Source: Eledone cirrhosa (lineage: Eukaryota). Taken from it: 64,000 nucleotides of DNA. Within the stretch, counting starts at the first letter, position 1. Each line of letters opens with the position of its first letter. Location: assembly GCA_964016885.1 (NCBI GenBank), contig OZ024742.1, forward strand, positions 160,146,001 through 160,210,000, given 5' to 3'. The notes beneath the pieces were generated by a model. That model worked only from the letters and a program-made list of their open reading frames with translations, had not been told where the DNA came from and ran no database searches. The position numbers were made by a program, and so were the translations under genes. Positions 21,600 through 48,672 of this stretch are shown piece after piece.

Positions 21600-21766
21600 T
21601 TCAATCGGGGGTAACCACAGTAAGAAAGGTACTCAATACATAGAGTATGAATATTTAATATAGAAATGGCTTCTACAGGACTAGTACTGTTTCATCCAAA
21701 GGAAATCATCAGGAAAACTTTCCTGATGATTTCCTTCGAATGAAACAGTTCTAGTCTTGTAGAAGA
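21600..21766 (-). mobile_element. short PLE-type foldback (arms 21670-21765) with hammerhead-like motif in each arm, plus tail
   Basis: tttc-CTGATGA-tttcctttggat-GAAA-cag tactagtc ctg-TA-gaag; related copy with mutated core (CTAAGGA) and the same tail at 56670-56790. Confidence 0.65.
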
Positions 21767-21796
21767 CATATATATATATATATATATATATATATA

Positions 21797-22335
21797 TAAA
21801 GTTAAATAAAAGTCAAATGATTAAAATTTAGCATCGTTTATTACTGCTATATATATTTCAGTGACATCCATCTTTGGCTGTGACCTCTTCAGGCAGTTTG
21901 AATTAGTATGGTATAGACAAGTACATATGTTGTTTAGGTGTATGATATTGTCAATACTCTGATATGCCCAGTTCCTTGTTGGGTTCTTAATTCACTGGGG
22001 AACTGGAGTCATATCTGACTCCAGTTCCCCGGTGAATTAACAACCCAACAAGGAATTGGGCATATCAGAGTATTGACAATATCATACACCTAAACAACAT
22101 ATGTACTTGTCTATACCATACTAATTCAAACTGCCTGAAGAGGTCACAGCCAAAGATGGCTGTCACTGAAATATATATAGCAGTAATAAACGAAGCTAAA
22201 TTTTAATCATTTGACTTTTATTTAACTTTATTTTACACTACTCCGGAGTAACCAAACCAACCTGCGCACTTCGTCGAGTGCTCCAGCCTGCATACTGAGG
22301 TGTTGGTATACAACCAACATAAACTCAAAATCTAT
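21797..22335 (+). mobile_element. Penelope-like pLTR foldback: ~215-bp inverted arms (21797-22230) plus unique 3' tail, inserted in (TA)n
   Basis: Near-perfect palindrome centred on tatc (22012-22015), a hammerhead followed by AATAAA in each arm, ~100-nt tail then tatata. Confidence 0.8.
22130..22184 (+). ncRNA. type-I hammerhead ribozyme (mirror copy 21843-21897 on - strand)
   Basis: actgc-CTGAAGA-ggtcacagcca aaga tggctgtcact-GAAA-tatata-TA-gcagt then AATAAA; 5-bp stem I, long stem II, palindromic AUAUAUAU stem III. Confidence 0.85.
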
Positions 22336-22686
22336 ATATATATAGCCGTTGTGTTATATGTATGGCTAGTGCCTTCGTTCGGTTTTCTTGGTGTCAATTT
22401 ATAACTGTTGTGTTTACTCTGGACGTAATGTTTTTGATTATCGCACCATTGAGGGCTTTCTGATTGCCTCAAACAAATCGAATAGTACTTGCTGTGCGAC
22501 AGCAAAAACTTCGATTTATATCTATTATATATATATATATATATGCCACTACTGGAATTGAATAATCAAAACCGTAACGATGTGTCGCATATCAAATCTT
22601 ATATTTTGTCTGATGAAAACGTACTTAAACACCATTGTAGCTTTGAAATATTTTTCATTTATTAATATTTTGAATAATATATATAT

Positions 22687-23100
22687 GAGTGGTGGGTGCT
22701 TTTTTGCAGTGGCACCTCCACGACCACTTTTCAGTGGAATTATATCCACCCCAGTCCCTATCATCTCAATTCTACAGCTGAGTAAACTGGAGCAATGTGA
22801 AATAAAGTGTCTTACTCAAGGAAACAACACATCACCGGGTCTGAGAATTGAACTCACAACCTTTCGATTGCAAGGCCAATGCTCTAACCCCTAAGACATG
22901 TGCCTATATATAAGCACGTGGCTTAGGGGTTAGGCAAGTGGTCGTGGAGGTGCCACGGCAAAAAAGCACCCACCATTCACTGTAAATGAGGTTGGTGTTA
23001 GGAAGGGCATCCAGCTGTAGAAATCAAGCCAGAATCAGTTCTCGTCCCACCCTTGCAAGCAGGAAAAAGAGGACGTAAAATGATGATGATGATGATGATG
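22687..23100. mobile_element. head-to-head SINE pair of a second family, tail shared with RTE-X 3' UTR
   Basis: Inverted matches 22884-22903/22914-22933 and 22687-22728/22936-22978; cactgtaaatg.ggttggtgttaggaagggcatccagc.gtagaaa and (GAT)n end also at 51340-51507. Confidence 0.7.
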
Positions 23101-23202
23101 ATATCGATTGGCTAGCATTATACAAAATGAATTTCCCATAACTACCAATGCGGGAATTGAATAATCAAGAGCGTAGCGGTATGTCATATATCAAATCATA
23201 TA

Positions 23203-23264
23203 TTTTGTCTGATGAAGACGTACTGAAAAAACAAAACAGTACCTTTGAAATATATATAATAAAG
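23203..23264 (+). ncRNA. type-I hammerhead ribozyme; decayed sibling at ~22604-22650
   Basis: ttttgt-CTGATGA-agac gtactg...cagtac cttt-GAAA-tatata-TA-ataaag. Confidence 0.72.
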
Positions 23265-44309: not shown

Positions 44310-44413
44310 GTGTGTGTGAGTCCCCCAAAATGTATACACACTTCAACAGCATTCTAATAAATATTGCCTGTACAGGTAATCAAAGTGTGTATACATTTTT
44401 GGGACACCCTGTA
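44310..44413. mobile_element. Tc1/mariner-type mini-MITE
   Basis: Right TIR reads TA-CAGGGTGTCCCAAAAATGTATACACACTT on - strand; left arm ccaaaatgtatacacactt. Confidence 0.65.
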
Positions 44414-45402
44414 TATATATATATATATATATATATATATATGTATATGTATAAAATATATATAAATATATATATATACTATATATAATATATATAAATA
44501 TATATATATATATATATATATATATATATATATGTATAAAATATATATAAATATATATATATACTATATATAATATATATAAATATATATATATAATATA
44601 TATAAATATATATATACTTATATATATAAATATATACATACATAATATATATATATATATATATATATATATATATATGTATAAAATATATATAAATATA
44701 TATATATATACTATATATAATATATATAAATATATATATATAATATATATAAATATATATATACTTATATATATAAATATATACATACATAATATATATA
44801 TATATATATACATATAATATATATATATATAATATATATATATATACATATATATATAATATATATAAATATGATATATATACATATATATATAATATAT
44901 ATAAATATATATATACATAATATATATATATATATAATATATATATATATATACATATAATATATATATATATAATATATATATACATATAATATATAAT
45001 ATATATATATATACACATATATAATATATATAAATATAATATATATATACATATATAGATAATATATGTAAATATATATATACATATAATATATATATAA
45101 TATATATATATGTACATATAATATATACATATAATATATATATATACATATAATATATATATATATAATATATATATATATATAATATATATATATATAT
45201 ATATAATATATATATATATATATATATATATATATATATAATATATATATATATATATATATAATATATATATATAATATATATATATATAAATATATAT
45301 ATAATATATATATATATATGCACATAACATATATATAAATATATATATACATATAATATATATATAAATATATATATACATATTATATATATATATAATA
45401 TA

Positions 45403-45758
45403 GTATTAAGGATACTATTTATGGTTATGCATATACTAAAACCTTTTATAGTTATATATATATTTTAAACCCTAAATAGACAGTAATTTATTACTACCTT
45501 ATTACCAGTAAGATAAATAGCTCAATGTAATAACATCAGTTGTTCTACAGAGCATTTATATAGAAATTACATGAATCAAAATTCTGTTTAAACCATTTAT
45601 TCGCTTACAATTGTTTCTTCCAAACCGAAGTTTGGATGTCATGTATGTAAACAATCATTGAAATATTGCTCCGAAGACTTCAAACCTCGGTTTGGAAGAA
45701 ACAATTGTAAGCGAATAAATGGTTTAAAAGGAACTTTGATTCATGTAATTTCTATATA
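45403..45758 (-). mobile_element. PLE-type foldback (45557-45758) with tail; hammerhead variant at 45666-45714
   Basis: ttgct-CCGAAGA-cttcaaacc tc ggtttggaa-GAAA-caattg-TA-agcga then ataaa; palindromic ACAAUUGU stem III. Confidence 0.7.
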
Positions 45759-46632
45759 TATAATATATATATATACATATAATATATATATATAATATAT
45801 ATATATATACATATAATATATATATATAATATATATACATACATATAATATATATATAAATATGTATATACATATAATATATATATACATATAATATGTA
45901 TATAAATATATATATACATATAATATATATATATATATATATATATATATATATATATATATATATATATATATATATATTATATATATATATATATTTA
46001 TATATATATTATATATTATATATATATATATTATATTATATATATATATATATTTATATATATATTATATATTATATATATATATATATATATATATATA
46101 TATATATATATATATATATATATATAATATATAATATATATATAAATATATATATATATATAATATAATATAAATATATATATACATATAATATATATAT
46201 ATATATAATATATATATACATATAATATATATATAAATATATATATACATATAATATAAATATAAATATATATATACATATAATATATATATAAATATAT
46301 ATATACATATAATATATATATAAATATATATATACATATAATATATAAATATATATATACATATAATATATATATATATGTATTCATATAATATATATAT
46401 AAATATATATATATACATATATTATATATATATATATATATATATATATATATATATATTCATATAATATATATATAAATATATATATATACATATATTA
46501 TATATATATTATATATATTATATATATTATATATATTATATATATTATATATATATATATATATATATATATATATATATATATTATATATATTATATAT
46601 ATTATATATTATATATATATATTATATATATT

Positions 46633-46886
46633 CAGGAGACTGAGGTTGGCTGGACATGCTCACCGACATCCAGAGTTGACATTGCACTCAGTGCTCCTTT
46701 GGGAGCCCCTACATGGACACACTAGAAGAGGAAGACCAAGGTTAACATATGTTGATGCCCTAAGGACAGACACTGGTCTGTTGGAGATGCAGGATATGGC
46801 AGCGATAATGAGGGACAGAGACCGCTGGAGAGAACTCGTCCATGGATCTCGGGAATTTTACCCGCCTTAGATAGATAGATAGATAG
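46633..46886 (+). mobile_element. RTE-like LINE 3' end with (TAGA)n tail
   Basis: RRLRLAGHAHRHPEL...LLWEP.HG..RRGRPRLTYVD.LRTDTGL...DRDRWR. Confidence 0.8.
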
Positions 46887-47625
46887 ATATATATATATAA
46901 TATATATATATATAATATATATATATACAGATAATATATATATAATATATATATACATATAATATATATATATATATATAATATATATATACATATAATA
47001 TATATATAAATATATATATACATATATATATAAATATAATATATATATGTACATATAATCACCACCCCACTCTTAAGAGCGTGAAATTAATAAACATTTG
47101 TTGTACTGCTTCTCTGTTTTGTTCCCGTTCAATTTTTCATTATAATATATATATATACATATATATATATAAATATATATATTATATACATATAATATAT
47201 ATATAAATATATATATTATATACATATAATATATTTATAAATATGTATATACATATAATATATATATAAATATATATATACATATATTATATATATATAT
47301 AATATATATATACATATATATGTAATATATATATACATATATATGTATAATATATATATACATATATATATAAATATAATATGTGCATATAATATATATA
47401 TATGTACATATAATATATATATATGCATATAATATATATACATATAATATATATATATATAATATAATATATATATATAATATGTATATATAATATATAT
47501 ATATAATATATATATATAATATATATATATAATATATATATAATATATATATATATATATATATATATATATATATATAATATATATATATATATATACA
47601 TATAATATATATATAAATATATATA

Positions 47626-48672
47626 TAGAAATCACATGAATCAAAGTTCCGTTCTAACCATTTATTAGCTTACAATTGTTTCGTTCAAACCGAGGTTTGG
47701 GGTCTTCGGAGCAATTTTTCAATTATTGTTTACATACATGACCTCCTTTCCAACACAAGAGACATACTGAAACATATGTATATATCGATGGATAATAAAA
47801 CGATGTAAATTCTCGCAACAAGAACAACCTGCTCTATAAAATTGGATTAAAGTACACTGAACCGCAACAAGCTGTAATAATCTAAGCTAATACATCAGAC
47901 ATCCAATACTGAATCATCGTTAATTATGTGAAGGGCATATAATCTATATATTACGTTTCCTGGATTGTGAAAATGGTGGTGTATACAAAAAACCATAACA
48001 TTATTTTGCTTCTCATTTTTAATATTTCTCTGCACACAAGCTTCTTTATCATACATAAAAAATACTTTACCAATACAACCCCCATAATACTCTTGAATAC
48101 CCGCTTAAAGTGCATATAACACCTTGCCGCACAATAATCTTATATAAATAAGACACACGTGCATGCCCCACGTGTAACTATTGCATACACTAACTATTTC
48201 AAACTATCCCCTTGGATTATCTTCGTAAACTGCCGATGTTGTATTTTAACTTTAATTTTGTTTTAATTTTGTTTTAATATGATTTTAATTTTTGAATTTA
48301 AATTGCCATGCAAAAATATTATACTGGATGTCACCACACTGTGCATCGTTATATACATATGTTTCTGTATGTCTCTTGTGTTGGAAAGGAGGTCATGTAT
48401 GTAAACAATCATTGAAACATTTCTCCGAAGACCCCAAACCTCGGTTTGGACGAAACAATTGTAAGCTAATAAATGGTTTGAACAGAACTTTGATTCATGT
48501 GATTTCTATATAACTGCTCTGTAGAAAACTGATGTTATTACATTGAACTATTTATCTTACTGGTAATAAGGTAGTAATAAATTACTGTCTTTCACTGTTT
48601 AGGGTTTAAAATATATATAACTATAAAAAGTTTTAGTATATACATAACCATAAATAGTATCCTTAATACTAT
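47626..48672 (+). mobile_element. longer copy of the same PLE-type family: ~165-bp inverted arms, ~550-bp body, 3' tail
   Basis: 47626-47789 is the reverse complement of 48344-48509; hammerhead variants at 47666-47714 (-) and 48420-48468 (+); tail 48510-48672 is inverse of 45403-45556. Confidence 0.72.

Follow-up and report, generated by a model that had tools for sequence, protein, structure and literature searches.

The hammerhead ribozyme motifs that crowd an intron of ~46 kb in a vestigial-like gene of Eledone cirrhosa are very probably pseudo-long terminal repeats (pLTRs) of Penelope-like elements (PLEs), left behind as 5'-truncated or fold-back insertions in (TA)n and accompanied by non-coding units (families C and G) that PLE enzymes likely mobilised in trans. 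Our analysis covers a window of 64,000 nt (assembly GCA_964016885.1, contig OZ024742.1 of 379 Mb, positions 160,146,001 to 160,210,000 of the forward strand), to which all positions below refer unless a fetched locus (L number) is given; the element range, 21600-48672, sits inside the intron of the host gene, which is on the - strand. What we observe directly are links to frames for reverse transcriptase (RT) and GIY-YIG endonuclease, a preference for TA targets, families that each have two alternative 3' ends, copies inverted at the 5' end, non-coding units in tandem and a high copy number.

Using a strict type-I descriptor (C[UC]GANGA, stem II of at least 3 bp, GAAA, NUH and stem I of at least 4 bp), we found nine motifs in the range (21892-, 22135+, 23209+, 26196+, 26720+, 27313-, 27430+, 30246- and 45671+, the sign giving the strand) and ten in the window, the tenth (49591+) lying beyond the range. 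Looser scans added eight further loci in the range (21712-, 32872-, 41811-, 41947+, 21723+, 22610+, which is broken, 47709- and 48425+). In support of an initial annotation that had described hammerhead loci here, 300 dinucleotide shuffles of the region gave a mean of 0.007 motifs (maximum 1), as did 300 shuffles of its non-microsatellite part, while the non-masked window gave 0.027 motifs per shuffle (150 shuffles); TA microsatellite accounts for a large part of the range, of whose 27,073 nt masking leaves 15,599. All six stem I pairs named by that annotation could be located, including ttgct/agcga with a CCGAAGA core (family E) and agttt/aaact, which is 32872- and has a CAGAAGA core (family J). 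Two C units moreover differ by a compensatory stem I change (acgttg/caacgt versus acgatg/catcgt), and 96 motifs from a genome sample (see below) comprise 31 distinct 5-mer stem I pairs, albeit with pairing demanded by the descriptor. A view of the motifs as chance matches in AT-rich repetitive DNA may find support in our Rfam scan, where no hammerhead was among the 150 matches listed of 369 and microRNA models on TA repeats dominated, but it has to contend with nine motifs against 0.007 in shuffles, with 96 in the sample, for which six shuffles gave 0-1, and with compensatory stems across families, so that to our minds its probability is negligible. Instead, the motifs are by their sequence minimal type-I hammerheads of the PLE and retrozyme kind. 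The loci are these (HHR, hammerhead ribozyme):

21596-21770, both strands: family F fold-back pair, a Hydra-type PLE pLTR, with HHR 21712- and 21723+
21796-22338: family A inverted pLTR pair with HHR 21892- and 22135+, the + arm having a tail of ~100 nt
22545-22680 (approximate limits), + strand: D-like (D2) terminus, 3' part of the hammerhead broken, core at 22610
23145-23310 (approximate limits), + strand: D-like (D2) terminus with HHR 23209 and a (TA)n end
26028-27023 (approximate limits), + strand: family C, two head-to-tail non-coding units with HHR 26196 and 26720
27047-27622: family B inverted pLTR pair with HHR 27313- and 27430+, arms 100% complementary
30165-30385, - strand: A-like (A2) terminus with HHR 30246, within a (TA)n array
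32803-34400, copy on the - strand: family J, 5'-truncated Hydra-type copy plus inverted arm
36080-36290: family H fold-back pair in which a long-stem-II hammerhead is represented by its 3' half alone (the core of longer copies is of the U3-A8 type)
41410-41587, - strand: locus I, where a hammerhead-like core (41485) has a hairpin as stem III and lacks stem I pairing
41630-42047: family D inverted pLTR pair with HHR 41811- and 41947+
45385-45755: family E fold-back pair with HHR 45671+ (CCGAAGA), the - arm broken in stem II
47622-48675: family E truncated copy with 3' untranslated region (UTR), HHR 48425+ and inverted arm 47709-
49303-49890, + strand: family G, non-coding circularly permuted unit of ~600 nt with 7-bp stem III and HHR 49591, between TA runs
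58226-58927, - strand: host vestigial-like exon frame (Vg_Tdu), upstream of the element-bearing intron

Many of these loci are paired arms of a single insertion, so that insertions number fewer than motifs. The inverted repeats at 21796-22231 (A) and 27121-27622 (B) are perfect, and the J copy combines a 3' UTR (34115-33204) and HHR 32872 with an inverted arm (34112-34400) whose hammerhead is broken. Further H, C and F pieces lie beyond the range at 15197-15425, 19412-19558 and 56658-56787.

As to stem III, the palindromes that the initial annotation had described are present in the range (AUAUAUAU, ACUAGU and ACAAUUGU) and 12 of 16 distinct sequences among the short stem III variants are self-complementary, compared with 4.5 expected; the description does not extend to family B, whose loop III (AGAACU) is non-palindromic. 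Families G and J have a hairpin stem III instead, and the H core is a UUGANAA (U3-A8) variant. Self-complementary stem III would fit a model of cleavage as dimers, B being the exception.

Families A, D, E, F and J, together with a sister subfamily of H, are, as judged from their sequences, the pLTRs of protein-coding Hydra-type PLEs. Extending the hits to masters with RT and GIY-YIG, as had been proposed at the outset, succeeded for A, B, D, E and J, for H by way of the sister subfamily and for F as far as an N-terminal part. The A master (L033) is a frameshifted frame with RWK, DKT, YRDD, CNCRNPESC and YIG, followed by a non-coding region of ~1.1 kb; the E master (L120) is a related frame, with RWR and DKT, between direct pLTRs 4.2 kb apart; and the D master (L123) is joined via a UTR common to four other loci, with no D-linked frame found in L125 or L126. 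In 10 of 11 non-self loci, the J UTR is bordered by the end of a Hydra-like endonuclease (CNCRNRVDC/YIG), the F tail continues into the start of a DKT-bearing open reading frame in L275, of which only the N-terminal part was recovered, and the H sister subfamily has a related endonuclease end as well as the U3-A8 core. The CxCX5C linker is present in A and J. Because the Hydra-type proteins are only 30-56% identical in their overlaps, we treat them as separate families; their 3' UTRs measure 0.9-1.1 kb and their tails 60-170 nt. Pfam returned no RT match on the element frames, and GIY-YIG matches, all below the cut-off, in just two of five PLE proteins.

Family A illustrates how such termini end up in the genome. 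Its 40 scored copies are 97-100% identical over ~220 nt and, among 30 loci selected by a full-pLTR query, the 3' end is short in 26 and tailed (~100 nt longer) in four, all in TA runs; 20 of the 30 carry an inverted arm and six extend upstream into the common non-coding region of ~1.1 kb. Next to one family A copy, and inverted, lie fragments of another PLE, with a CX4CxxC linker (L031:6854-7887). In family F, the tail jumps to the next hammerhead start in all 14 loci obtained with a junction query, making deleted units of ~180-190 nt whose junctions are internal and variable and in which the junction to the parent PLE is retained. F would hence be a PLE terminus with variable internal deletions. 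A fixed circular F unit of 188 nt was ruled out, for the only tandem (L280) is TA-separated and the junctions vary. The J (32873-32890, - strand) and F (L275) masters also show a splice-acceptor-like AG end upstream of stem I, which recalls the intron end of Drosophila Penelope.

Family B differs from these by motif and looks to be of Neptune/Nematis type. In L117, an open RT and GIY-YIG frame of 1,282 codons lies between direct pLTRs 4,292 nt apart and encodes a CIDKKCITC linker (CX2-5CxxC), DKSG, YVDD and, read by eye, two cysteines before YIG and two histidines after it (CCHH). Pfam gave no match for this protein, and its closest named database match is an Octopus vulgaris protein (70% identity). 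Among 52 matches listed for the terminus, 28 are full-length and 100% identical, the window copy included; family B is thus probably active or very recent, and of the active families postulated initially at least this one is very young.

Among the window families, only C and G seem to behave as non-coding head-to-tail retrozyme-like units. A C unit of ~480 nt has its own tail directly before its head in 17 of 20 loci, that of the window included, and L217 holds an array of at least seven units (~482 nt each); we found no similarity of C to PLE proteins, and its longest ATG frame (137 aa) is antisense and repeat-derived. G has an identical 5' start in 11 of 11 loci, five of which show its own tail upstream by BLAST, and no frame adjoins it; its units are permuted and a full array was not seen among them. 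For both families, (TA)n flanks mask any target-site duplication. A sequencing-run search with family C listed no RNA run and returned three rows from one study (share 0.38-0.50). Further non-coding tandem hammerhead units measure 310 nt (stem III ACGCGU) and 556 nt (ACUAAUUAGU) and occur in L189 (whole), L215:5900-8100 and L194; the 310-nt arrays show fold-back inversion and the L215 array is TA-flanked on both sides. Taken together, C and G were likely mobilised in trans by PLE enzymes. Of the several independent non-coding families that the initial annotation had proposed, the plurality of families stands and C and G are indeed non-coding, but A, B, D, E, F, J and the sister of H are linked to coding elements.

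The association with (TA)n, also claimed from the outset, is pronounced: (TA)5 occurs within 300 nt downstream of 45 of 54 non-array motifs, as opposed to 19.8% of 4,281 random positions. For the other end of the insertions we mapped 5' breakpoints in loci not fetched for the family concerned, counting both arms of one insertion, and found two of 377 arms exactly at the cleavage site and six within 2 nt, which rules out cleavage-generated 5' ends as the main route. This bears on a different scenario, in which all families are independent non-coding retrozymes that spread via cleaved circular RNAs. Its architecture is true for C, G and the deleted F units, and arrays of 310-, 482- and 556-nt units do occur in a random sample; however, seven families link to coding PLEs, repeated continuity from frame through UTR to pLTR refutes it for A, B, D, E and J, and 5' ends lie off the cleavage site, all of which renders the scenario very unlikely.

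Instead of the cleavage site, the breakpoints favour the 5' edge of stem I in F and J: in F, 46 of 67 arms begin 38-45 nt ahead of the cleavage site and just three extend far upstream; in J, the start falls between -47 and -44 in 13 of 56 arms, and 17 of 34 cores break within ~12 nt upstream. For H, 82 of 103 arms begin 21-48 nt ahead of the cut site, usually within the 3' strand of stem II, a picture blurred by subfamily divergence, which also confounds the D breakpoints (90 of the 377 arms), left uninterpreted here. In A, B, C and E the breaks lie further upstream, with no pile-up at stem I. The simplest reading of this scarcity of 5' ends at the cleavage site, and of their clustering by stem I in F and J, suggests that uncleaved RNA usually serves as the template; the stem I edge would mark either the start of an RNA or a place prone to fold-back. 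The former option can be taken further to see the short F and J copies as self-propagating minis, similar to short interspersed elements (SINEs), with an RNA 5' end fixed at stem I by a transcription start or a splice acceptor. The F and J counts would suit such minis, as would published accounts, in the parts accessible, which place the intron end of Drosophila Penelope at the 5' end of helix I (PMC4209133) and the start site in the pLTR (PMC8557442). Yet an insertion enters these counts once per arm, alignment ends move with subfamily divergence, fold-back wherever the template is structured would produce an identical pile-up, and A, B, C and E lack it; we hold this to be a real possibility, though not the one we would expect.

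Returning to PLE termini inserted by PLE enzymes, the following scheme, drawn in part from published PLE work, may be envisaged. The GIY-YIG endonuclease would nick AT-rich DNA and RT would start at either of two internal sites, giving a short or a tailed end; it would usually stop early or fold back, leaving truncated and inverted copies. Uncleaved RNA is the likely template, and the same enzymes would insert C and G RNAs in trans. For the ribozymes, cleavage is predicted to require a dimer or the help of a protein, for which reason solo and inverted copies in the intron are likely inert. When folded, four inverted pairs form duplexes that are 85-99% paired, so their ribozymes are likely buried; the sole same-family tandem pair in the intron (C) is antisense to the host gene.

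Several findings weigh against this interpretation or parts of it. For isolated F-, J- and G+ motifs, the minimum free energy structure is not the hammerhead fold, and loop III of B, not being self-complementary, is a poor fit to the dimer model. At two F loci (L277, L281), the sequence picks up again precisely at the cleavage site, though with GA/GAA microhomology. No masters of A2, D2 and I were found among loci already fetched for other families; H connects to PLEs only through its sister subfamily, and the F and H frames recovered are broken. The E and D copies examined each lack one CxCX5C cysteine, clade names follow motifs rather than a tree, and what ties C and G to PLE enzymes is solely their shared insertion signatures.

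To gauge the genome-wide number, we drew 79 10-kb stretches from the large contigs, taken at round coordinates (789,400 nt of a 3.0-Gb genome) and obtained the 96 strict motifs mentioned above. Bootstrapping puts the total at 3.6 × 10^5 strict motifs per genome (2.1-5.6 × 10^5), in line with the very large count anticipated by the initial annotation. Tandem arrays in four stretches contribute 42 of the 96; once arrays are collapsed, 56 events in 35 of the 79 stretches remain, about 2.1 × 10^5 per genome. Counting by homology to eight window families, decayed copies included, gives 160 arms in the sample and about 6.1 × 10^5 per genome. With 10 strict motifs in 64 kb as against 96 in 789 kb, the window is about average in motif density.

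Published figures, as far as the accessible parts of the sources go, are ~2,000-9,000 minimal hammerheads per genome (PMC4209133) and, in PMC7229834, ~5,000 for mussel and as many as 120,000 retrozymes for axolotl. Our estimate exceeds the largest of these, in a comparison that is rough since methods differ. Our literature search found no cephalopod hammerhead census, although supplements of Craig et al. and of the preprint may list such counts, and a 2026 repeat annotation of Octopus vulgaris describes 31 recently active Penelope-like families in a text whose accessible part does not contain the word ribozyme (PMC13282606). That a burst in which Hydra-type elements and the retrozymes derived from them multiplied has given this genome more hammerheads than any reported (about 3.6 × 10^5 intact, over 6 × 10^5 with decayed ones), with the stem I pile-up marking a defined RNA end of uncleaved hammerhead SINEs, is an idea we put forward tentatively and consider rather unlikely.

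Much of what we see has precedents, which we cite from the accessible parts of the papers concerned. The minimal hammerheads of metazoan PLEs (PMC4209133) likewise combine a type-I fold, short stem I and an unpaired base starting stem II with palindromic loop III; they too occur as many families per genome, mostly as single truncated copies, with opposite-strand pairs 100-700 bp apart and a U3-A8 variant (here H). They differ in number, their ~2,000-9,000 per genome contrasting with about 3.6 × 10^5 here, and we found no mention in that part of C-C and C-A cores such as those of E and J. Hydra-clade elements (PMC8557442) are diagnosed by motifs that include RWK, DKT and the CxCX5C linker and share with our families RWK (A; RWR in E), DKT (A, E and F, where this region was recovered), the CxCX5C linker (A and J), a C-terminal GIY-YIG, hammerheads, (TA)n insertion, a tail on one end and inverted 5' copies. 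Where that paper lists one cephalopod Hydra family (Hydra-1_Obim of Octopus bimaculoides, with (TA)n preference and no pLTR defined), we find six related ones (A, D, E, F, J and H) within one intron. Family B shares the CX2-5CxxC linker and CCHH-type endonuclease with the canonical Neptune/Nematis PLEs described there, a likeness by motif and not by tree.

Animal non-LTR (long terminal repeat) retrozymes, for which PLE origin and mobilisation have been proposed (PMC7229834; 10.64898/2026.07.22.740005), are non-coding head-to-tail type-I hammerhead units like C, G and the 310- and 556-nt units; ours measure 310-600 nt, compared with 150-450 bp as published, and differ further by showing TA targeting and fold-back inversion, while F deleted units keep the parent junction. 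Poseidon PAc of Anolis (PMC11167929), though of another clade, also has an AT-rich target and two 3' ends and gives no hint of ends at the hammerhead cut site; two RT start sites were demonstrated for it in vitro, which for our elements we infer, and unprocessed RNA is its main substrate in vitro. Earlier publications thus cover minimal hammerheads that are truncated and on opposite strands (2014), Hydra elements that target TA (2021) and retrozymes (2020, 2026), whereas the scale, the variety of Hydra-type families, retrozyme insertion in the manner of PLEs and the pattern of breakpoints are new here.

The host gene is identified by an exon frame matching the Vg_Tdu domain (E 4.5e-10), and a second host exon frame lies near 11186-11770. 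One might suppose that intronic hammerheads were co-opted to regulate vestigial-like pre-mRNA, and eight cores do lie on the host sense (-) strand. The elements are, however, young multicopy insertions at about genome-average density with cores on both strands, and their inverted pairs fold into duplexes that bury the motif, so co-option seems highly improbable. Other features of the window include a 200-nt N run (assembly gap, 9868-10067), the 3' part of a non-LTR retrotransposon frame (50205-51119), which has a longer relative with an RT domain at L031:3328-5415, and a short 3' fragment (46635-46870) resembling long interspersed elements, with a (TAGA)n end, that lies inside a TA array and recurs in L032 and L058. 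A frequent SINE-like repeat of ~180 nt, with what we take to be a B-box-like motif, is found at 23575-23755, 33020-33205 and 38334-38667; one of the copies sits within the J element, and a tandem of a related 125-nt unit lies at 38334.

The Eledone genome supplies very many natural insertions for studying the role of the hammerhead in PLEs. Trans-mobilisation and the need for cleavage become testable through a young family whose copies are identical and whose frame is open, through retrozymes bearing PLE signatures and through minis in which the parental junction survives; should a burst of uncleaved hammerhead SINEs prove true, family B would be a ready active system for PLE ribozyme function. 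Long perfect inverted pairs would also give double-stranded RNA in introns, which is of possible relevance to cephalopod RNA editing. More broadly, a share of the short unclassified repeats in octopod annotations may be PLE termini.

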